From Escherichia phage vB_EcoS_W011D, in the sequence record NC_054893.1: a stretch of 49,847 bases of DNA. The stretch is one strand, 5' to 3'. Within the stretch, counting starts at the first letter, position 1. Each line of letters opens with the position of its first letter. This document shows positions 30,832 through 41,699 of this stretch, piece by piece. A model generated the notes under the pieces. It saw only the letters and a list, made by a program, of their open reading frames with translations, made no database searches and was not told the DNA's origin. The translations under genes and the position numbers were made by a program.

Positions 30832-31779
30832 ATGAGCGAAATGCACGAAAACATGATGTTTCAGAAAGAGGATGTTTTACCTTACATGAAAGGAATGTGG
30901 CGTGATGCGCTACAAAGCATTTGCGGACTACATTCTGACGTGTTCAATAAAAAACATCAGCCTTGCCCTAACTGCGGCGGCAAAGACCGTTTTAGATGGA
31001 CTGATAAACTTGATAGTGATGGCGACGGCGGCGCGATCTGCAACGGATGCGGTAATGATTCCGGCGTTGGCTGGATGATGAAACTTACTGGCGAGCCTTA
31101 CAGTGAAGTGATTAACATCCTGGGGCGCTTTCTTGGTAAGGTTCCGCAAGAGTACCGGATAAAGGCAAATAAACGCGCATCGCGTGCATCAGGTTACAGT
31201 TTCGGATCTCAGGCTCCGCACGAGAATTGCGTTGCTGTAATGGAGCGAACCGAACTGCGCCACAAAACGCCGTTAAGCGTTTTTGAGGGTATAGCGCCGC
31301 CAGATGATGAAATGTATTCCGTAGGTGTGAAAACTCTGGAGGATGGCGAAGAATCGTTAATTCACGCCATACCGTGTTACCTGGTGCATGATGATGAATT
31401 GGATGATGAAATGTGCAACATTCTTTTCATTGACGACAACGGAAATCAAAGTTTTTACGCAAAGGATTACACGCGCGGCTCGGTTGCGGTGACGGGTAAA
31501 ACTGACAAGACGATCTATCTTTGCGTTGATTGGGTTGATGCTCAACACATCCACTTATCGACGGGGCAAGAGGTTTGGGCGTGCTTCTCACAATACAATC
31601 TTGAAATGGTTGCATATCGCTATAAAGGAGATCGCAAAATGCGTGTCGTGTGCAAGCCTACCGATCAGGATGTGATAATCTCAGCGGAGGAAAGGGGACT
31701 TGACGTGATGATCCCGATTAACGATAATTTCAAACAAGGGATAGAGCGGAAGTTATACAAACCCGAATCTTTCCTTTAG
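30832..31779 (+). CDS. DNA primase candidate with N-terminal zinc-binding motif
   Basis: 315 aa; CPNCGGKDRFRW ... ICNGCGN zinc-ribbon arrangement near the N-terminus; adjacent to the helicase region. Confidence 0.5.
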   Translation: MSEMHENMMFQKEDVLPYMKGMWRDALQSICGLHSDVFNKKHQPCPNCGGKDRFRWTDKLDSDGDGGAICNGCGNDSGVGWMMKLTGEPYSEVINILGRFLGKVPQEYRIKANKRASRASGYSFGSQAPHENCVAVMERTELRHKTPLSVFEGIAPPDDEMYSVGVKTLEDGEESLIHAIPCYLVHDDELDDEMCNILFIDDNGNQSFYAKDYTRGSVAVTGKTDKTIYLCVDWVDAQHIHLSTGQEVWACFSQYNLEMVAYRYKGDRKMRVVCKPTDQDVIISAEERGLDVMIPINDNFKQGIERKLYKPESFL

Positions 31780-31792
31780 TTGCCACTGTTTA

Positions 31793-31816
31793 CCCCGCTA
31801 CGGCGGGGTTTTTTTA
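31793..31816 (+). terminator. Rho-independent terminator after primase
   Basis: CCCCGCTACGGCGGGG followed by TTTTTTTAT. Confidence 0.65.
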
Positions 31817-31865
31817 TGCATTAACAAATGCTATTATCAGGCTTTAACCAACAGGAGAAACAAAG

Positions 31866-33941
31866 ATGGCTATTTATCGCACTGGACAAGCGTCTATGGA
31901 CGCTCAAGGATACATCACCGGATATGATACAAAATGGCGTGAGCAACTTTCATTAATCCGCCCTGGTGCAACAATCTTTTTTATTGATGCTCCTTTTCAA
32001 GCGGCTGTGATTAGTGAGGTTATCAGCGATACACAAATCCGCGCCATCACAACTGGCGGCGCTGAAATTGGGCGAAGCAATTACATCATTTTGCTGCATG
32101 ACTCAATCACGGTTGACGGCCTGGCGCAAGATGTTGCGGAAACTCTGCGCTACTATCAAAGCAAAGAAACTCAGATCGAGGAAGCTATTGAATTTTTCAA
32201 AAACCTTGACCTGAAAACTTTGCAGGATTTGGTTAATCAGATTAAAGGTGATGCAGAAAAAACAGCCGCTGATCGCGCTGCAACTGAACAACTGAAAAAC
32301 GACACTCAACAGATAAAGGATTCTGCTGTCGCTGAAACAAACCAGATCAAGTCCGACACTGACGCAATCAAAAGCCAAACTCAACAGATCAAGGATTCCG
32401 CTGTAAATGAAACGGAAGCCATTAAGCAAGGGGCTTTTGGCGCTCGCGATCAGGCTGAATTGGCGCGTGATGCGGCTGGAAATCATGCCGTTGATGCTAA
32501 TAATGCAAAGGCTGGCGCTGAGACTGCGCGTGATGAAGCGCGTCAATGGGCGCAACAGGTACAGCCTGAAAATCTGTTACATAAAGATCAGAACCTTAAT
32601 GATCTTGCAAACAAAGACCTTGCAAGGGAGGCGTTGAAAGTTGAGGCGGTTAATTCTGTAAAAGGTCAGGCTGCTGGAGATTATAACTCTTTCCGCAACC
32701 CTGCATGGACTTATGAATTGCGGATCGCTAACAATGGCGAATGGCGCGTTGCAAGAAATAGCGATGGATCAACGTCTGCTCTTTCTGTTGGCGCTGGCGG
32801 TACTGGTGCGGAAAACGTAGAAGGCGCAAGGATAAACTTTAGGCTTCAAGGATTTGACACATTGTCAAGTGAGTCAAGGGTATTAAATCCTCAAAATGTA
32901 AGCCAATACATATTTATGAATTCGATTGGTGGTTGGGGTGCTTACGACTCTGAAAATGTAAGAGCAATTCCGCTATCGCTTGGCAATGGTGGAACTGGAG
33001 GTACAGATCAGAATAGCGCTCGCCATAACTTAGGATTATCCATTAATCACTCCCCTGTTTTTGCTGGTATTGATTTGCAAGGTCTTAACGGCACAACGTC
33101 AGGGATCATGGTTTTAAGAAATAGAGATGCTGGAGGCGCTCAAGTTTCATACTCAAGAATTTACCATGAAATTCAGGCTGGAGTTGCCAGAACAACAATA
33201 CAAACAACAAGAGAGGGTGGTGGTACTAACTATTTTCAGATTGATGAAACTGGACTTGTTAATAATGTTAGGGCGATAAGATGTTCTCCGTCAAATGTTG
33301 GTGGCGAGGGATTTACCGTTGGCGTTGTTCCTGGTGGAGGATTTGCAGCCTGGAGAGATCGACCTGCTGGAATGATTGTTGAGCACCCAAGCGATGATGT
33401 TGCGGTTAACGTATTGAAATCTGTCCGTTGGGGCGGAGATTGGGTTATGGGGATTGACGCTGCAAGGTATGGCGCTGGAGGTTGCGAGGTTCATCTAAAT
33501 GTAAGAGGTACTACATATACATTTAATGATGCTGGTTATGCGTCTGCTGTTCAGTGGGTTAACACATCCGATATTCGCCTGAAAGCAAATCTAAAAGAGA
33601 TTGAAAGCGCTAAAGAAAAAGTGAAATCAATAAAAGGTTACACTTATTTCAAGAGGAATAATCTTGATGAAGATGAGCACTCTTTCTACTCTGAGGAAGC
33701 TGGTGTAATAGCTCAAGACGTGCAAAGTGTTTTGCCGGAAGCGGTTTACAAGATTTCAGATTCTGAATATTTAGGTGTTAGCTATGGCGGGGTTACTGCT
33801 CTTTTAGTTAACGCATTCAACGAAATGAGCGATCAGATTGACAAGCAACAAGAGGAGATCGAAACACTGAAATCTGAAATTGCAGATCTTAAAGCGGCGT
33901 TTGAGGCGTTACTCAACAAGCCAACAACGCTGGAAAGTTAA
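31866..33941 (+). CDS. Side tail fibre / receptor-binding protein with C-terminal intramolecular chaperone (peptidase S74-type) domain
   Basis: 691 aa; repeat-rich coiled-coil shaft; C-terminal SDIRLKANLKEI (Ser-Lys dyad motif) followed by a heptad-like coiled coil; AT-rich distal half with AGA/AGG codons. Confidence 0.75.
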   Translation: MAIYRTGQASMDAQGYITGYDTKWREQLSLIRPGATIFFIDAPFQAAVISEVISDTQIRAITTGGAEIGRSNYIILLHDSITVDGLAQDVAETLRYYQSKETQIEEAIEFFKNLDLKTLQDLVNQIKGDAEKTAADRAATEQLKNDTQQIKDSAVAETNQIKSDTDAIKSQTQQIKDSAVNETEAIKQGAFGARDQAELARDAAGNHAVDANNAKAGAETARDEARQWAQQVQPENLLHKDQNLNDLANKDLAREALKVEAVNSVKGQAAGDYNSFRNPAWTYELRIANNGEWRVARNSDGSTSALSVGAGGTGAENVEGARINFRLQGFDTLSSESRVLNPQNVSQYIFMNSIGGWGAYDSENVRAIPLSLGNGGTGGTDQNSARHNLGLSINHSPVFAGIDLQGLNGTTSGIMVLRNRDAGGAQVSYSRIYHEIQAGVARTTIQTTREGGGTNYFQIDETGLVNNVRAIRCSPSNVGGEGFTVGVVPGGGFAAWRDRPAGMIVEHPSDDVAVNVLKSVRWGGDWVMGIDAARYGAGGCEVHLNVRGTTYTFNDAGYASAVQWVNTSDIRLKANLKEIESAKEKVKSIKGYTYFKRNNLDEDEHSFYSEEAGVIAQDVQSVLPEAVYKISDSEYLGVSYGGVTALLVNAFNEMSDQIDKQQEEIETLKSEIADLKAAFEALLNKPTTLES

Positions 33942-33959
33942 CAAAAAAATAATAACAAG

Positions 33960-33985
33960 GCGCGGCTCCGGCTGCGCTTTTTTTC
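33960..33985 (+). terminator. Rho-independent terminator after the tail fibre gene
   Basis: GC-rich imperfect hairpin GCGCGGC/GCTGCGC followed by T7. Confidence 0.55.
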
Positions 33986-34106
33986 GTCTTTATGCCAGTT
34001 GCTTACATTCAACTTACAAATGATTTATATCTTATTTTCAAAATCAGCGTAGAGTTAGCCGTGTGGCAAGTGGATACAAAATAAACTAACTTAATGAGGT
34101 GTTACT

Positions 34107-34205
34107 ATGTCTGATATAACTCTGTTACCAACTGGCGGAGATTTTGGTGGTGAAGCTGGGCGGCTGGCCTTGGCGGTGCTGGGAATGGCAGAAAGCGAAA
34201 AATAA
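34107..34205 (+). CDS. Candidate micro-ORF, 32 aa (MSDITLLPTGGDFGGEAGRLALAVLGMAESEK)
   Basis: ATG with GAGGTG RBS; ends at a terminator hairpin; in the 290-bp gap between the fibre gene and SSB. Confidence 0.25.
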   Translation: MSDITLLPTGGDFGGEAGRLALAVLGMAESEK

Positions 34206-34209
34206 AAAA

Positions 34210-34225
34210 GGAGCCGAAAGGCTCC
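34210..34225. terminator. Terminator GGAGCCGAAAGGCTCC (same hairpin as 37226-37241)
   Basis: Perfect stem with GAAA tetraloop; T-run on the minus strand after the SSB gene, weaker T-tract on the plus strand. Confidence 0.65.
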
Positions 34226-34234
34226 TTTAGTCGT

Positions 34235-34654
34235 TTAAAACGGAATGTCATCATCAAAGGTTTGTTGCGGTGCTGGCTGTCGCTGCGGCTGGCTTTGTTG
34301 CTGCCCTGATTGCTGCGGCGCTGCGGCTCCTCGCTGACTGAACACTAAGCGCGGTTGCTCCATTTGCAATGTTGAGTACATTTGCCCGTTATGCTCGCGA
34401 TTGTTGATTTTTAGCGCCTCACAAGACACGCTAATAACTTTCCCTTGCTGCAATGCTTCATCGTACCATCCGCGCATTGCATCGCTTGAAGCAAAGAACG
34501 TTGCGCTGTAATTGGTATAAATTCGCTCTTGTGTTTGCCGATCCTTAATGCTTTCCGATAGCTCTACAATGTACATCTTGTAAGCGCCGGAATTGTTTTG
34601 CCCCTCTTTAACGTAAGGCTCTTTGCGTAACTCGCCAGTGATAATGTGCGGCAT
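34235..34654 (-). CDS. ssb: Single-stranded DNA-binding protein (SSB)
   Basis: 139 aa; Gln/Pro-rich linker and canonical acidic C-terminal tail DDDIPF. Confidence 0.8.
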   Translation of the reverse strand: MPHIITGELRKEPYVKEGQNNSGAYKMYIVELSESIKDRQTQERIYTNYSATFFASSDAMRGWYDEALQQGKVISVSCEALKINNREHNGQMYSTLQMEQPRLVFSQRGAAAPQQSGQQQSQPQRQPAPQQTFDDDIPF

Positions 34655-34692
34655 TTCTTGATCCTTATCGGGGCGTTGCCGCCCCTGGTTGA

Positions 34693-35355
34693 CTATTCAA
34701 AGTTGGTGATTGATTGCGATTCTACCGCTTTTTTTGGTTCCGGTTCAACCCTTTCAGATTTCGCAACGTTTTGCTGTGGCGCTGCGGGGCTAAATCCGCG
34801 AGCGGTTCCGATTTCAAGATCTGCCTTGCGTTTATCGTAATGCCCTTTGATTACGTTCCGGCTTGCTGCGTCACTTGCCTTGTAAGCTGATTTAAACACC
34901 TCTTGCAAGTCTGTTACGTTGTCGCACTTATCAAGATCGCGCTTCCAATCCTCAGCGGATTTAACGGCAATTTGTGCGTCGTCGTCTGCCTGGCTTAAAC
35001 CAAACGCGGCTGCGAGTGCATAACGCCGCGCATAAGTGAATGCAGATCCTACGCCTTGCGGGTCGTTTTTGACAATCGGGATTTCTGAATAAAATTTCGC
35101 CCATTGGCCTGATATATGAATCACCGTTGTTTCAACCTTGAGTTTTGCGCCGCCCTCGTGATTCTCGATCATGTCCTGCATAACCATCAATTTACTATCG
35201 GTTAGCGCTGGCGTAATCGCATCCAGAACACTATCAAGAGTCGCATATTTGTTTTTAAGGTGCGTATTCTGGCGATCCTTTTTAACCTTTACAAACTGGC
35301 TGCGCGCCTTGTGAAGTGCTGGCAAAATCTCGTCAAACTTCTCTGATAATTTCAT
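34693..35355 (-). CDS. Erf-like single-strand annealing protein
   Basis: 220 aa; [12 protein letters not shown] segment typical of the ERF family; located between exonuclease and SSB. Confidence 0.65.
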
Positions 35356-35429: not shown

Positions 35430-36488
35430 TTATAAAAAGCCTTTGAATTGCTTGCGAACCCAATCAGGAGTGTCTAACTCGACTTCCGGCGCGCCGTTTG
35501 CGTAAGAAGGCCAAACATCATGCGCGTTGCACACTGCAAACGTGTTTATCACTCCCATGTATTGTAAGCGTCCGATCTTCAATTGCTCGCTACTCATGCG
35601 GAAAGCCAGCGGTAAAAATGGCTCTTTCTTTTCCTGCGCCAACAGTCTGACAACTACGGGGCGCGTTTCTTCTGGATAGGCTTTCTTAAACAGATCGTGT
35701 TGCAAAGCCATTTTCAAATAATAACCGTGATTGAATGCCAGGCGCGGAAACTCAAGCGGGTTTGCGCTCATTGTCGTTTTGTAGTCAGTGATAACAATCG
35801 CCTCTGGATAAATAATATCCTCGCAAATCGGCTGGCCTTTCTCGTCGTAACCAGTGATAAGCGTTGCGGTTACGTGCTGGCACACATCAACGTGATCCAA
35901 TCGCACCTTAACTTTTACGCCGTTGATAGTGCCGAAAATTGATAGCTCGCGTTGTGCCGTTGGGCTATTCATGCACGCGTTGTGCTCCGGTATGCTTTCC
36001 AGTACACGGCGCATCGTAACGCAAGCGTCGTAATCTTTCGCCGGAACCAATTCAACACCATCAGCCCTGGCCTCAGCCTCTGCGATCATTTCAATCAGCC
36101 ATAACACGTTAAGGCTTTCACCACAATCAACCATCATCTTGATCAGGTCTGGATAGGTTTTCCCTGTTGTACCTTTCAGGCCAAAAGATTTCAATTTAGC
36201 CGCCAATGCCGTTTGGCTTGTGATCAGGTTTTCGTAATCCTCCGGCGCTGGTGCTCTGCGGTATGTCTTGGCGAATAGCTCCGCGCTTTCAAAGTTTGTA
36301 TGTGACTGCGTACCAAAAACCAGCGGCTTTGCGTTTTCCTCGCGTTGACGGAACCGCCATGCAGCCGGACAACTGGAATGGATTTCTGCCAGGCTTGAGC
36401 CGCTTACATACTCAGCCGCCCAGCCTTTCGGATCGTGATACTCGTCGTTGCTTAACTGCGCGCTTGTGAAAACTTTAAAATCACTCAT
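35430..36488 (-). CDS. Recombination exonuclease candidate (RecE/YqaJ-like PD-(D/E)xK guess)
   Basis: Track ORF 35430-36527 trimmed to Met14 (MSDFKV) because the upstream codons overlap the -10 element; GGAG RBS; first gene of the exo-Erf-SSB module. Confidence 0.5.
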   Translation of the reverse strand: MSDFKVFTSAQLSNDEYHDPKGWAAEYVSGSSLAEIHSSCPAAWRFRQREENAKPLVFGTQSHTNFESAELFAKTYRRAPAPEDYENLITSQTALAAKLKSFGLKGTTGKTYPDLIKMMVDCGESLNVLWLIEMIAEAEARADGVELVPAKDYDACVTMRRVLESIPEHNACMNSPTAQRELSIFGTINGVKVKVRLDHVDVCQHVTATLITGYDEKGQPICEDIIYPEAIVITDYKTTMSANPLEFPRLAFNHGYYLKMALQHDLFKKAYPEETRPVVVRLLAQEKKEPFLPLAFRMSSEQLKIGRLQYMGVINTFAVCNAHDVWPSYANGAPEVELDTPDWVRKQFKGFL

Positions 36489-36515
36489 TTCATCATCTCC
36501 GTGTTGGTTTAACAG

Positions 36516-36543
36516 CATTCTAGCCATTTTTCGCGTTTAGTCA
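36516..36543 (-). promoter_or_regulatory. sigma70-type early promoter for the recombination operon (TTGACT - 16 nt - TAGAAT)
   Basis: On the minus strand, TTGACT and TAGAAT separated by 16 nt directly upstream of the exonuclease start. Confidence 0.5.
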
Positions 36544-36990
36544 ATAGGTGTAATGTTATTTTTTGTTTTCTGTTGTTTGTTTTCTATAGTGATAACAAAA
36601 TTGCATCGTAAGTTATTGATTTTGTCTTTGTTGTTTTTGTGTTTACCGTGTTCACAGATTTACGCCGGATATATAGGAATAGATACACATAAACAAAATG
36701 ACCATTACACAAAGTGAAATCACCACAACCAACCAAAAACCAATGAAACATAGAGAACAAAAAGAAACAAATAGATATATATAAATAAATAAACTCTTAT
36801 TTTTCATGTATATAGTAATATTTACTGTATGCTTATTGCTCAATAGCTGATTAAAAAATAAGCTAAATTTACGCCTACGCAAATTCGTGAACACTCTGGA
36901 ACAAAAGAAAACAAACGATAGCACTTTTTGCTAAAACTTCCGGTCGAGATCGTGTATAGTGAGCGCATCTAAACCAAAAGAGGAAAACAA
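36530..36990. other. 460-bp AT-rich non-coding region carrying the second copy of the ~150-bp element shared with 17030-17650
   Basis: No credible ORF; shares ACAAATAGATATATATAAATAAATA and GTGAACAC boxes with the first region, same orientation and spacing. Confidence 0.6.
36917..36936 (+). promoter_or_regulatory. Conserved 20-bp box copy (ATAGCACTTTTTGCTAAAAC) upstream of the Cor-like gene
   Basis: Followed 17 nt later by TGTGTATAGT (extended -10-like). Confidence 0.55.
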
Positions 36991-36991
36991 A

Positions 36992-37219
36992 ATGAAAAAG
37001 ATGATTGCCGTTTTAATTGCAGCCGTTGCCCTGACTGGTTGCGCAAATATGCCGAAACGCGAATGCACCGCAATTTATGAGAATAGCGGAATGGATTATG
37101 AAGTTGCGATCTTTGGCGTTAAGCGAATTAACGATCACACATTCGTGAAGCCTGGCTATCCTTTCAGTTATCATTGGGTTAGCATTGAAAACTTTAAAAA
37201 CGCAGATTGCAGCATTTAA
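36992..37219 (+). CDS. Small lipoprotein, Cor/Llp-like superinfection-exclusion candidate
   Basis: Track ORF trimmed to MKKMIAVL start with AAGAGGAAAA RBS; lipobox LTGC; 75 aa; encoded opposite to and just beyond the tail-fibre genes. Confidence 0.5.
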   Translation: MKKMIAVLIAAVALTGCANMPKRECTAIYENSGMDYEVAIFGVKRINDHTFVKPGYPFSYHWVSIENFKNADCSI

Positions 37220-37225
37220 AACAAA

Positions 37226-37250
37226 GGAGCCGAAAGGCTCCTTTTTTATT
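37226..37250. terminator. Bidirectional terminator GGAGCCGAAAGGCTCC plus T6
   Basis: Identical hairpin to 34210-34225, between convergent genes. Confidence 0.7.
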
Positions 37251-37920
37251 AGTCGTATGCCGCCGTGTTAATTGCTGTAACCGCAACGCCTGTATTTAAA
37301 TAACCCGCTGGCGATCCTCCTGCGGATTGGTTTGAAGCCGCATGAATCCTTGTTGTCGAGCCATTAAAATTTGCTGCCGTATATGCCGAAACGTTAACTA
37401 TTACTGGCTGCTGACCAGGAATGTAAACCTGCACTAAAGTTGCCCCCATTAATCTAGGCATTACAGCGTAAGATCCTGATAATGTTTGATCTATGTAAAT
37501 CCCTCCTCCGCTTCCTGGTGTTCCTATAGTAACGAGATCCGATAATGGCTTGCTCTCATTTGTTAATATACATGTCCCGCTTGCGTCCCATATAGCCATA
37601 CCCCATTTTGGGATTGGTTGAGGAAATCTTGCAAATAAATAACAAGTTATGGTGAATAGCGGAACGTTCCTACCCTGCGCGGAGCCGCTAAAAACAATAT
37701 AATCACCCTGCCTACTACACCCTAAAGCAGCGCCCCAACTACATTTTATAAATCCTATTGCTGAATAGGATGCAGGACAATAAACCCTTGATACAGCACT
37801 AACATATTGAGCCGAATCTCTTGTTGCTACCGCCTCAGTTCTTGAATATAAAACAAAAGGCGTTGATTCAGGAGTAACAAAAGTTTGCCCGTTATAATCT
37901 ATCATTGCACCGTAGGCCAT
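37249..37920 (-). CDS. Hypothetical tail-associated protein (223 aa, AT-rich gene, N-terminus MAYG)
   Basis: Track ORF; last gene after J; AT-rich codon usage unlike the rest of the tail module. Confidence 0.45.
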   Translation of the reverse strand: MAYGAMIDYNGQTFVTPESTPFVLYSRTEAVATRDSAQYVSAVSRVYCPASYSAIGFIKCSWGAALGCSRQGDYIVFSGSAQGRNVPLFTITCYLFARFPQPIPKWGMAIWDASGTCILTNESKPLSDLVTIGTPGSGGGIYIDQTLSGSYAVMPRLMGATLVQVYIPGQQPVIVNVSAYTAANFNGSTTRIHAASNQSAGGSPAGYLNTGVAVTAINTAAYD

Positions 37921-38229
37921 TTAAGCATTCTCCAGATAAACAATTAATTCGCATTGTGACGCTGGGTAATAATTATATCCAAGCTCGGATGTAGTAGCCG
38001 GATGAATAATTATAGAATTGCCTGAAATTTCTATTCTTCTCCCTACTTGCTGGCCTCCAGCGTCAAGACCTACAACATATCCAAGTTTTTTACCTGCCGG
38101 AACATTAAAAGACCATTGACCAGAAGTCTGACCAGATGCAAGAGGGATATTTGATATAACCGAAACAGGCTTGATCCCGTAGTTGTTATAAACCCCGTTT
38201 GCATCCCATGTTGATATACCATAAGCCAT
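37921..38229 (-). CDS. Hypothetical tail-associated protein (102 aa, N-terminus MAYG)
   Basis: Track ORF 37921-38268 trimmed to MAYGISTW start with CAGGAGA RBS; shares the MAYG N-terminus with the next gene. Confidence 0.45.
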   Translation of the reverse strand: MAYGISTWDANGVYNNYGIKPVSVISNIPLASGQTSGQWSFNVPAGKKLGYVVGLDAGGQQVGRRIEISGNSIIIHPATTSELGYNYYPASQCELIVYLENA

Positions 38230-38273
38230 AATAAAATCTCCTGTAAAGGTGGGGTGTCTCCACCCCACATATA

Positions 38274-41200
38274 TTACCAGTATCCGGTTAAACGTCCAAT
38301 CTGAACACGTAAAACGCCGTTTGCATCCCTAACACTGATCGTTTCGTTTGTCATTTTCATGGAACCATCGCCAGGAGTGGAGCCATAGTTTTCAAACGTG
38401 CCGTTTTTATCCAGCCTCCATCCTGATTGGTTCCAAACATAGTTGTTTGATTGGATGAAGTTACCGATCATGGCGTTTGTGATTGAACCGTCTTTCACTA
38501 ACAGGCTGTTAATGAAAACCTGGTTATTCTCTACCACAAAAGGCAACGTATACGTCCCGCCTGTCGAACTTGTCATGATCGCAAATCTTCCGGCATCAAA
38601 CAGGATTTGTGAAATCAACCCTTGCGGGCTGTTTGATAACTGCATGACCATTCCTGCGCTGTACTTCTGCCCGTTGTATGTCAAGCCCAATTTCATTGCG
38701 TATTGAGCGCCAACGCCGCCAACGCCAGCCCATGAATCAAGTTTTTCAGTCAGTGCGGATTCAACATCGCCAAACTTCGCCGTTAACGCTGTATCAGCCG
38801 AAACACGCGCCTCTGTTTCGTTTGCAATAGCTTCCTCAACTCGCGTTAACTGCCCCTGGATATCATCACCAATCTGTGATTTCAATTCCTCAATGGCTGT
38901 TGCTCGCGTTTCTGATTCTGTTGCAATTGCCTGATCAAGTCTCGTTACTTCGCTAGTTATCTCCTCGTCAAATTCAGCCTTGAGTTGCGTCATTGCGGTA
39001 ACGCGCGCCTCCGTTTCATCTGCGATCAATTGGATTGATTGCCTAAACTCTGCTTTGCGCTTGCCGTTTTCCTTCCTCATTATTCTAACGTCCGTATCAT
39101 TCGCCAATGCGTTTTGAATGATGCTTTGCGCCTGATCTTTAATCTTGTTTGCGCTGTCAATGGCGTTTTCCTTGATTTCCTTTCCGCCCTCAGTATTCCA
39201 GATATCGTCTAAAATGTCTCCAATAATATCTGATACATCATCGGAAGCCATGCCGCGCACAAAATCAGACCAGCCGGAAACGTTTCCGATCCTGTCAACA
39301 CTGCGCACGCGATACCACACAACTTTCCCCGCTGGTAGCGTGCTGTGCCAGTATTCAAACTGCGGATATGGGACAAGCGTTAAAAGGCTTGAGTTTTCCG
39401 CCGTTCCATCTGGTGATTGATGCAACTCAATATAGGCCGTGTCTCCGGTTCCCTCTGGCATACCCCATTTTACGCGAATACCGAAAACCTCATTTGTTGA
39501 TGCAGTAAGGTTTATAGGCTTCCCAGGCTCACCAACTTTACCAGTCAGCGATGCGGTAACTATTCCAGACCAGGGCGACGTAGAGCCGGAAGCGGAAACG
39601 GATCGCACGCGAACGTAATAAACTCCAGCGTAAATCCCCTCCACCTCAATCTCTTTGTTTGCCGTCTGTGGGACGTTTAACCAGTTGCTGTTGTCTTTCC
39701 TCCATTGAACCTCGTATAAGCTCGCGTAAGGCACTTTGTCCCAGCTAACAACCATCGTTTCAACGCTAACACCCTGAACAATGCGAGAGTAAGAGGAAAC
39801 GGCAACATTCTCTGGCGGCTGCATTACGTCAGGTTGCACAATGCTTGTTGGCCTGTCGTCGATGTTAACGCCATAATCAATCTCGTCGTATTTGTTCGGA
39901 TCGTATTCAACGGCTGTGATTGAGTAAGTAAACTCGTCCTCGTTGTCTCCCTTGGTGATTGTCGTCACAACGTATTGCTGCAATGCAATGTCTGTGCGGT
40001 CAATCGCAAACACCGTATCTGGCTGAACGTCAAAGCCAAAACCTATGTTTAGCTCAATGGTTTTTCCGTCTGCGCTCACGTTGGCAATGGTGCGTTTTAC
40101 TGGCTTCCCATCTGGCTTATTTACCATGATGAAATCGCCTGGCCGCGCATCTACTTTAAACGGTAGGAAAACTTGCAGACCGGATACCTCCATAACTCGC
40201 CCCGAAAGGTTGAGCGTTAATGCGCTGCTCCAGAAGTTATCCGCAATCGCCACCACATCACCTATTGACGGGATCATGCCCTCAAGACCTGTTGCAAAGT
40301 TTACCGTTGTGCTGCGCAAGTTGGTTTTCAGAACCCATCGCCCACGGCGGTTTGCTTCGCTGCGTCGTGTGCATCCAATCGCTGTAATGCTCGTTGGATT
40401 GTAGCCAAACCGTAACGCCGCCTCCGTTTCAAAAACCCCCTCAACGTCCTGTTGATACATGTTTTGCTCGTCGTCGAAAGTCACATTGCACTGTGTGTAC
40501 ATGCTCTTTTCGCTGGCGAATGTGTAGCTAAAATCTCCATTAACAACGTTATCATTTGTGAAGATGTAAGACGGCTCTCGCGGTCTATCAACGACAATTG
40601 AAAGGCTCTCACCGTTCCAGAAACTCATTCCACGGAAGATTGAACAAATATCCCTTACAAGCTGATACGCTTCAATCTGGCTTTGGATCACAACGTCGCA
40701 AAGGTAACGCGGCTCTGTTCCGCCCTTTCCATCTGGAACCATCTGATCGCAATATTGCCCCGCCTCGTAAATGCTCCACTTATCAAGTGGAATTCCCAAC
40801 TCACGTTGATCGAGTCCGTAACGCTGATTGGTTATCAAGTCATATAGGATGTAAGCCGGATTGTTAGACCATGCTTTTTTCCAGGTTCCATCCCACGCGC
40901 CGTGGTATTCACGCAAAACAGGATCGTAATTGCTCGGAACGTTTATGATCTTCCATTTCTTTTTTACCGCTATCCGTGGGATCTGGTTCGGGAATAGCTC
41001 GGAATCAAATTCCACATAAACAAGACCTGTCAGCGGATAACGAAATTTAGCGTCTACAACTTCCGCGTAGCTCTGCAACTTAATCAGATCTGTAACCTTT
41101 GACGATGTGCTATCAGGAGTAACACGGCGAACGCGAAACAATACTTGCTCGTTAAAAGCTGGCAAATCAATTCTGCGGCTTCTGTCGTAACCGCTGCGAG

Positions 41201-41699
41201 TTTTACCGCTTATCGTGTCGCTCAAAATCTCATTGTATGAGCCGCCATCAACAGCCATATCAACGGCATATGTTACGCTTACACCAACGAGATCGCCGTT
41301 GTCCTCTTGCTTTATACCAGTAGGCATAAGGATTTTTATTCTGATCGCAGATAGGTTTTTGTTGGTTACTGCAATCACATATGGAGTGTCTGTTTCAAGA
41401 TTTCGCGATACTGTTATTTCGCTTGAGGTGTCAGTAAATCCCTGGATGTAATCTTGATCTTGAGTGCCTGGCCTGAACTCAGCCGAAACGCCGCTATAGT
41501 TATAAGTGCCATCGTCATTCATAACCGGAACATCATCAAGATACAGGTCACGCAATGAAAACGTTTCGTCGCACTCACCATCGGAAACAGCAAGTAAGAT
41601 CTTGATTTTGTTTATCGAAATCAGGTTATCTTCCATTTCCTTTGGCACATACGGTTTTGATGAACCGCCTTTACTGCCGCTTATCACATTTTTAGCCAT
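38274..41699 (-). CDS. Central tail fibre / host specificity protein (lambda J-like)
   Basis: 1141-aa ORF directly after the tail assembly I-like gene in the conserved M-L-K-I-J order. Confidence 0.75.
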   Translation of the reverse strand: MAKNVISGSKGGSSKPYVPKEMEDNLISINKIKILLAVSDGECDETFSLRDLYLDDVPVMNDDGTYNYSGVSAEFRPGTQDQDYIQGFTDTSSEITVSRNLETDTPYVIAVTNKNLSAIRIKILMPTGIKQEDNGDLVGVSVTYAVDMAVDGGSYNEILSDTISGKTRSGYDRSRRIDLPAFNEQVLFRVRRVTPDSTSSKVTDLIKLQSYAEVVDAKFRYPLTGLVYVEFDSELFPNQIPRIAVKKKWKIINVPSNYDPVLREYHGAWDGTWKKAWSNNPAYILYDLITNQRYGLDQRELGIPLDKWSIYEAGQYCDQMVPDGKGGTEPRYLCDVVIQSQIEAYQLVRDICSIFRGMSFWNGESLSIVVDRPREPSYIFTNDNVVNGDFSYTFASEKSMYTQCNVTFDDEQNMYQQDVEGVFETEAALRFGYNPTSITAIGCTRRSEANRRGRWVLKTNLRSTTVNFATGLEGMIPSIGDVVAIADNFWSSALTLNLSGRVMEVSGLQVFLPFKVDARPGDFIMVNKPDGKPVKRTIANVSADGKTIELNIGFGFDVQPDTVFAIDRTDIALQQYVVTTITKGDNEDEFTYSITAVEYDPNKYDEIDYGVNIDDRPTSIVQPDVMQPPENVAVSSYSRIVQGVSVETMVVSWDKVPYASLYEVQWRKDNSNWLNVPQTANKEIEVEGIYAGVYYVRVRSVSASGSTSPWSGIVTASLTGKVGEPGKPINLTASTNEVFGIRVKWGMPEGTGDTAYIELHQSPDGTAENSSLLTLVPYPQFEYWHSTLPAGKVVWYRVRSVDRIGNVSGWSDFVRGMASDDVSDIIGDILDDIWNTEGGKEIKENAIDSANKIKDQAQSIIQNALANDTDVRIMRKENGKRKAEFRQSIQLIADETEARVTAMTQLKAEFDEEITSEVTRLDQAIATESETRATAIEELKSQIGDDIQGQLTRVEEAIANETEARVSADTALTAKFGDVESALTEKLDSWAGVGGVGAQYAMKLGLTYNGQKYSAGMVMQLSNSPQGLISQILFDAGRFAIMTSSTGGTYTLPFVVENNQVFINSLLVKDGSITNAMIGNFIQSNNYVWNQSGWRLDKNGTFENYGSTPGDGSMKMTNETISVRDANGVLRVQIGRLTGYW

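Follow-up and report, generated by a model that had tools for sequence, protein, structure and literature searches.

The window analysed here, the whole 49,847-nucleotide stretch of DNA of Escherichia phage vB_EcoS_W011D (NC_054893.1), harbours on its + strand an open reading frame (ORF) at 31866–33941 that encodes the lateral tail fibre (LTF) of a T1-like Drexlerviridae phage. The assignment follows from the ORF and from homology: the gene is genuine, specifies a precursor of 691 amino acids and 74.9 kDa, and is already annotated, as the "tail fiber protein" of the W011D record is its exact product. A literature search found no dedicated paper on this phage. In a PHROG search, phrog_5481 (tail fibre) matches residues 1–484 (E 1e-211), and the middle and distal parts match families that bear the names tail fibre or long tail fibre distal subunit. 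The 5′ end of the gene has matches in 255 phage records. An antisense ORF (32103–32555, − strand, 150 residues) was treated as spurious, as it is nested within the well-supported fibre ORF. The initial annotation had proposed a receptor-binding fibre equipped with a chaperone: the core of this proposal is supported by the phrog_5481 match, by homology of the anchor and by the S74 match described below; cleavage and the receptor are inferred.

The gene is preceded by a regulator and a primase and followed by genes for ssb, an Erf-like annealing protein and exonuclease VIII (opposite strand). This order, from the regulator and primase through the fibre to the three genes on the opposite strand, is common to PaulSarasin, 011D2 (Tlsvirus), BubbaBully (Henuseptimavirus) and T1. 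Maffei et al. (2021) identified exactly this locus as the one for lateral tail fibres in Drexlerviridae: conserved recombination and primase/helicase genes lie on either side, and within the fibre gene conservation is confined to the extreme 5′ end (S1C Fig, PMC8594841). The W011D gene displays this arrangement, together with the N-terminal anchor that is conserved across the family. As the gene order recurs in relatives and agrees with the published locus, the position beside the primase is ancestral family synteny, T1 included, rather than the mark of a displaced gene. The fibre had initially been placed far from the tail module, which does not hold: the J-like tail tip gene (38274–41699, − strand) lies merely 4.3 kb away, and the interval contains the ssb, Erf and exonuclease genes and a receptor-binding-protein locus.

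A Shine–Dalgarno sequence, AGGAG, is located at 31853–31857 (+), 8 nt before the fibre ATG. The terminators said to bracket the gene were recovered as two intrinsic-terminator-like hairpins. The upstream one (31792–31816, +) lies between the primase stop (31779) and the fibre and consists of a 7-bp G+C stem, a 4-nt loop and seven T residues; its hairpin at 31792–31809 with the T-run has a folding energy of −15.1 kcal/mol (z −4.2). The downstream one (33957–33990, +), 16 nt past the fibre stop codon, comprises a 10-bp stem and a T-run, and its hairpin at 33957–33980 with the T-run reaches −17.1 kcal/mol (z −3.8). For each of the two, none of 200 shuffled sequences was equally stable. Co-transcription of the fibre with the regulator and primase, as first suggested, sits awkwardly with a strong hairpin between primase and fibre. 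A sigma-70 promoter scan yielded no candidate from the upstream terminator to the ATG, and performed at chance level, with 8 candidates found against 6.9 expected.

Beyond the fibre, a deletion of 1.72 kb with respect to PaulSarasin and BubbaBully has left behind a 32-residue remnant ORF (34107–34205, +). The deletion removed four genes of unknown function and its junction, at approximately 34173–34181, falls in the microhomology GCGGTKCTG. The four corresponding PaulSarasin genes, absent from the window, have no Pfam match, and their PHROGs entry reads unknown function.

Domain organization of the fibre

The first 120 residues (31866–32225, +) form a conserved virion-anchor domain that is 97–99% identical in PaulSarasin and other relatives. 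Similarity at this end is far-reaching: T1 gp26 (YP_003919.1) is 37% identical over residues 2–331, and residues 1–183 are homologous to the N-terminus of the depolymerases 7VYV/7VZ3 (Depo32) and 7LZJ (E 7e-51). As Depo32 and 7LZJ are capsule depolymerases of Klebsiella phages, this homology lends some weight to a reading of the protein as a tailspike with enzymatic activity, depolymerizing or deacetylating a polysaccharide, instead of a purely binding fibre. However, the homology stops at about residue 183, neither Pfam nor PDB sequence or fold searches returned a beta-helix, lyase, hydrolase or esterase family, so that the catalytic beta-helix or hydrolase body of a capsule or O-antigen depolymerase tailspike was not found, and the middle and distal parts belong to the tail fibre PHROG families mentioned above. 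An enzymatic tailspike is accordingly regarded as very unlikely.

The anchor is followed by a helical shaft (residues 121–235; 32226–32570, +), rich in Ala, Gln and Lys and built from 11- and 7-residue units of the type xxQIKxx. A tandem duplication had been noticed here, and a direct-repeat search recovered it as two 56-nt copies, 32283–32338 and 32358–32413, that are 77% identical and spaced by a 75-nt (25-residue) period. The repeat corresponds to one 25-residue unit (11+7+7) of the shaft, and the number of units varies among relatives. Tandem Repeats Finder left it unreported and gave just an 8-nt micro-repeat.

Next comes a conserved module (residues 236–315; 32571–32810, +) with the sequence NLLHKDQNLNDL...YELRIANNGEWRV...GAGGTGA; fibres of the Stevie/Punny type are 95% identical to residues 254–320. 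The subsequent variable unit (residues 316–400; 32811–33065, +) contains a second LSxGxGGTG...ARxNxxL motif. This segment of approximately 85 residues has no close relative, the best of the matches in a search of 5.8 billion proteins reaching 41% protein identity; it is missing in some relatives and doubled in others. The distal tip (residues 401–567; 33066–33566, +) is the candidate receptor-binding part. Its residues 401–470 share 90% identity with a Salmonella fibre encoded on a 107-kb contig, and residues 471–567 share 94–96% with phage 011D2. An AlphaFold monomer model is of moderate quality only (pLDDT 72.5, pTM 0.30). A Foldseek comparison of residues 254–691 of this model with the PDB returned nothing at E ≤ 0.001 but WD40/nucleoporin noise, the extended monomer of an intertwined trimer being a poor query, and the same fold search gave no PDB match for the distal domain.

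The C-terminal end (residues 568–691 and the stop codon; 33567–33941, +) is a 13.9-kDa intramolecular chaperone of the Peptidase_S74 type. Pfam PF13884 aligns with residues 568–628 over profile positions 1–58 of 58 (E 7.3e-14; 52.2 bits against a cut-off of 22). The initial annotation had taken SDIRLK and a coiled coil as typical of S74 domains and had staked its reading on S74 similarity at this end; both the profile match and a long helix, predicted at about residues 640–683, bear it out. SDIRLK occurs once in all six frames of the window, at residues 568–573 (33567–33584). The hallmarks of the family are present: a nucleophile Ser at the start of the domain, a general-base Lys five residues on (S-D-x-R-x-K), and a mixed alpha/beta unit with a long helix of the kind that forms a trimeric coiled coil. 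The C-terminus of S16 gp37 (6F45) matches residues 519–671 (E about 5e-14 to 6e-14), its SDRRIK aligning with SDIRLK, and residues 568–640 are 97–100% identical to many fibres.

The predicted scissile bond joins Thr567 to Ser568 (33567–33569, +), with Lys573 encoded at 33582–33584 (+). The arrangement is that of T5 pb1, where T1263-S1264/K1269 corresponds to T567-S568/K573 (PMC4690869). For pb1, the experiments of Garcia-Doval et al. demonstrated cleavage of the Thr1263-Ser1264 bonds and activation of Ser1264 by Lys1269, and the S1264A change was found to block cleavage (PMC4690869). By analogy, the W011D fibre probably cleaves itself at T567-S568, which would give a 61.0-kDa mature fibre and the 13.9-kDa chaperone. 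The domain could instead be an uncleaved structural C-terminus, an inactive relic or a cap kept on the mature fibre: we infer cleavage from the comparison with pb1, and no counterpart of the upstream Arg/Asp 'folding sensor' residues of pb1 could be assigned in the W011D protein. Nevertheless, Ser568, the adjacent Asp569 and Lys573 are invariant across 57 aligned homologues and the Pfam score is far over the threshold. Moreover, the uncleaved chaperone of pb1 masks the binding site and stops the tip from competing with phage adsorption, so that retention would be functionally costly (PMC4690869). A retained chaperone is thus very unlikely indeed, and self-cleavage is the preferred reading.

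Patchwork ancestry of the middle of the gene

PaulSarasin is the nearest genome overall, and the pattern of identity to it is uneven. The flanks of the fibre region are 96.8–98.9% identical, and within the gene identity is 97–99% up to about 32370 and 89–96% from about 33570, but across 32370–33570 it drops to 40–80%. The left-hand boundary of this interval lies within the conserved shaft and the right-hand one, at approximately 33570, coincides with the first codons of the S74 domain.

Sliding-window comparison with three T1-like relatives resolves the interval into blocks. From 30832 to 32360 PaulSarasin is 97–99% identical, as opposed to 44–82% for 011D2. Between 32360 and 32630 PaulSarasin falls to about 80% and BubbaBully stands at 86–92%, and 32630–32810 shows 82–91% identity to 011D2. 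Over 32812–33170 none of the three relatives exceeds 67% identity. A stretch of 580 nt (33226–33805) then differs from 011D2 by 23 mismatches (96% identity), and PaulSarasin is 53–72% identical from 33226 to about 33530. From 33802 to 34100 PaulSarasin returns to 92–97% and 011D2 is at about 50%. Outside the T1-like group, the T5-like phage SpoonbillGilly (113.6 kb) is 81% identical over 766 nt, 32987–33752.

The exchange seen here is a mosaic of five or more blocks and extends more widely than the 32700–33600 interval first highlighted. The anchor and shaft on one side and the S74 domain on the other are conserved, and the blocks they enclose differ in ancestry; recombination with other T1-like phages has hence replaced the middle part of the gene piece by piece, and the pool involved is also common to T5-like phages. 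The location of the boundaries, in the shaft and at the start of the S74 domain, would fit homologous recombination in which the conserved ends of the gene act as arms. The comparison with relatives that the initial annotation called for has yielded a crossing pattern of identity at this locus; the position of the locus is no oddity, being shared by T1.

Base composition had been the first hint of a foreign origin, and the claim of a visibly more AT-rich region stands for third codon positions only. At 0.446, the total GC content of 32700–33600 sits at the 19th percentile of 901-nt windows, the genome mean being 0.462 ± 0.023, and the lowest raw GC is found in the S74 tail (0.39 at 33571–33941). 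Raw GC was consequently rejected as a marker of foreign origin in favour of GC3 and Arg-codon choice, which are informative. GC3 of the same interval is 0.297 as compared to 0.474 ± 0.061, at about the 1st percentile. The AGA and AGG codons, described as rare elsewhere, are indeed so: they account for 15 of the 21 Arg codons in 32700–33600 and for 137 of 724 (19%) in the remaining genes (Fisher p = 4e-7). Within the fibre, AGR codons number 0 of 11 in codons 1–253 and 16 of 22 in codons 254–567 (p = 9e-5). In a genome-wide scan the fibre stretch ties for the maximum, with 16 AGR per 21 Arg codons in succession, which none of 20,000 permutations attained. The distal tip is the most AGR-rich and lowest-GC3 part of the gene.

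The rise in AGR and the fall in GC3 also characterize the distal halves of the PaulSarasin, 011D2 and BubbaBully fibres, and the fibre genes of SpoonbillGilly are alike (GC3 0.22–0.25; AGR 13/28 and 21/33). As the signature is common to the distal halves of all relatives examined, it marks a lower-GC pool of modules shared by the family and not a recent event in W011D. The initial annotation had taken codon usage to suggest a recently exchanged receptor-binding domain: the exchange is upheld by the 96% block shared with 011D2 against a backbone of 44–82%, but codon usage does not show recency, which is shown by that block and not by composition.

The shared signature has some bearing on a different account, according to which the distal half diverged in place under diversifying selection, without exchange, and the codon bias stems from a Gly-rich beta make-up or is a family-wide property. 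The ordinary total GC and the presence of the signature in three relatives agree with this account, and the signature alone dates no event. The identity profile argues strongly against it: 33226–33805 is 96% identical to 011D2 although the primase and 5′ fibre regions are at 44–82%, PaulSarasin, 97–99% identical in the flanks, falls to 40–80% in exactly this place, and the best relative changes block by block. Such crossing patterns are impossible without exchange, and divergence in place is the most improbable of the explanations weighed here. Piecewise exchange is hence retained.

A model for maturation and receptor binding

Taken together, the evidence favours a lateral T1-like fibre that is cleaved by its S74 domain, by analogy with T5 pb1 and K1F endosialidase, that binds a primary glycan with its tip and whose middle has been exchanged; the probability of this reading is put at roughly 0.85. 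In the proposed sequence of events, three 74.9-kDa chains would trimerise, nucleated by the C-terminal chaperone. Once the distal domain has folded, Ser568, activated by Lys573, would cut the T567-S568 bond, and departure of the chaperone would leave the mature fibre of 61 kDa with an exposed tip. The N-terminal ~120 residues would anchor the fibre to the tail and the helical shaft would act as a spacer from it. The primary receptor, bound reversibly by the tip (about residues 400–567), would be a surface glycan, probably a sugar associated with LPS such as O-antigen, and irreversible adsorption would be set by the separate receptor-binding-protein locus adjacent to gpJ.

By analogy with its family, the target of the fibre is most likely the primary, reversible receptor. 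Maffei et al. propose that Drexlerviridae lateral fibres bind O-antigen as primary receptor and themselves add that such binding was never demonstrated directly; the terminal choice of receptor is made by the locus that follows gpJ (PMC8594841).

Much of this is established biology: S74 chaperones, the primase-adjacent position and the hypervariable lateral fibre locus of Drexlerviridae are all known, the variability of the locus having been published by Maffei et al. in 2021 (PMC8594841). The gene is of a known kind in an annotated genome, and the new details are confined to the block map and the unique 85-residue unit. The outcome is a precise map of domains and breakpoints in the W011D fibre, comprising anchor, shaft, variable cassette, tip and chaperone with a predicted cut at T567/S568. 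The fibre also illustrates clearly how co-circulating T1-like phages exchange blocks of sequence, the pool they draw on being represented in T5-like phages too. Maps of this type help to choose junctions for fibre-tip swaps that alter host range, and the significance beyond annotation is small. A bolder and rather doubtful extension is that residues 316–400 and the shortened tip might define a new glycan specificity and that the invariant anchor and S74 ends might be universal recombination arms, so that T1-like and T5-like phages would share cassettes in a natural plug-in system. If true, such a system would be usable for host-range engineering.

Comparison with known fibres and chaperoned tail proteins

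The closest counterpart is the LTF of PaulSarasin (Bas09, QXV83678.1; Drexlerviridae, Tempevirinae, Changchunvirus). It occupies the same locus between primase and ssb, its nucleotide identity is 97–99% up to ~32370 and 89–96% from ~33570, and it has the same S74 C-terminus (Pfam E 1e-12). It differs in length (757 residues versus 691), the overall protein identity being 64% and the middle 1.2 kb being replaced; its tip is about 70–80 residues longer, and downstream it is accompanied by the four extra genes deleted in W011D. The fibre of vB_EcoS_011D2 (QMP82720.1; Tlsvirus, a Changchun isolate) presents the converse picture, sharing the distal tip and most of the S74 domain at 96% DNA identity. 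That phage belongs to another genus, however: the 5′ half of the gene and the flanking genes are 44–82% identical, the shaft has an extra 11-residue unit and the last ~45 residues are unlike. T1 gp26 exhibits the same gene order and the N-terminal similarity described earlier, but its C-terminus is PF25670 (Phage_tail_C_2), without an S74 domain, so that two or more types of distal end are in use within the family.

Among enzymes, Depo32 of Klebsiella phage GH-K3 (7VYV) and the 7LZJ depolymerase share the anchor (residues 1–183), which is typical of KP36-like Drexlerviridae, and differ in their capsule-depolymerase body, absent from the W011D fibre. The endosialidase K1F chaperone (PDB 3GW6), MyRF ICA (7DC3) and S16 gp37 (6F45) carry upstream passenger domains that are unrelated to that of the W011D fibre. 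The L-shaped tail fibre of T5, pb1, similarly ends in an S74 chaperone with a chaperone helix (PMC4690869), but the W011D fibre is much shorter and has a different N-terminal attachment. PDB sequence matches at E ≤ 10 contained no similarity to the pb1 tip or chaperone, and neither the bullet-shaped receptor-binding domain nor the sequence homology that would define a pb1-type fibre was found. By analogy, the W011D fibre would thus work like pb1 and is no pb1 orthologue.

A second AGA/AGG hot-spot at the gpJ locus

The AGA/AGG arginine codons that mark the distal half of the lateral fibre gene (31866-33941, plus strand) are concentrated in a second hot-spot at 36873-39300, where they account for 16 of 21 consecutive arginine codons, a density that makes this interval the joint genome maximum together with the fibre gene. 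The hot-spot lies on the minus strand and comprises two genes located after gpJ (37249-37920 and 37921-38268), together with the 3'-terminal third of the J-like gene itself (38274-41699). In the two genes all 11 arginine codons are AGA or AGG; their products match phrog_425 and phrog_557, and the same families are annotated on T1 ST31/ST32. As the gpJ-locus hot-spot ties with the fibre gene, the same foreign codon style is present in both host-range loci.

The two genes are adjoined by the gene for the Cor superinfection-exclusion lipoprotein (36959-37219). Between this gene and that for exonuclease VIII the GC content dips steeply, falling to 0.29-0.36 at 36400-37000 against a genome mean of 0.46. 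Only weak ORFs are found in this trough, such as that at 36652-36924, which has no family match.

A deletion downstream of the fibre gene

Compared with the T1-like relatives PaulSarasin (Bas09) and BubbaBully, the interval 33942-34235 is missing a 1.72-kb segment that contains four genes of unknown function (phrog_9288, 9157, 8329 and 7239), the first of which is annotated in Bas09 as a 'putative sugar-binding protein'. Through the deletion the first gene's start is fused to the last gene's end, with a junction at about 34173-34181 that displays the microhomology GCGGTKCTG, and leaves a remnant ORF of 32 aa (34107-34205; MSDITLLPTGG...AVLGMAESEK). At the corresponding position the relative 011D2 harbours a single small ORF.

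Transcription signals flanking the fibre gene

The top sigma-70-like site of the region (31700-31728, plus strand; TTGACG and GATAAT 17 nt apart, 10 of 12 matches) comes from a scan that overall performs at chance level, and falls within the primase gene at its 3' end, ahead of the terminator-like hairpin at 31792-31816. Directly after the ssb gene, a 9-bp hairpin preceded by A-runs and followed by T-runs (34207-34228, minus strand, -14.2 kcal/mol) looks like the terminator of the leftward recombination operon, facing that of the fibre gene; face-to-face terminators are annotated at the equivalent junction in T1. Antisense terminator-like matches at 32307-32328 and 32382-32403 (minus strand) each coincide with one of the two shaft-repeat copies and were dismissed as a side-effect of it rather than independent signals.

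Fibre relatives and distal architectures

A search of the phage collection returned approximately 12 unannotated 'Campylobacter phage' records (47-50 kb) that are about 89-90% identical to the fibre gene over its 5' 600-740 nt; they seem to be genomes of T1-like coliphages that were filed with Campylobacter named as the host. The fibre of phage T1 itself, gp26 (32695-34881 in the T1 genome), shares with the fibre described here the anchor, the shaft and the first GGTG motif (aa 2-331, 37% identity), whereas in place of an S74 chaperone it has PF25670 (Phage_tail_C_2) at the C-terminus. PF25670 is also present in several other matches retrieved by the protein search, and at least two alternative distal architectures therefore exist among Drexlerviridae fibres.
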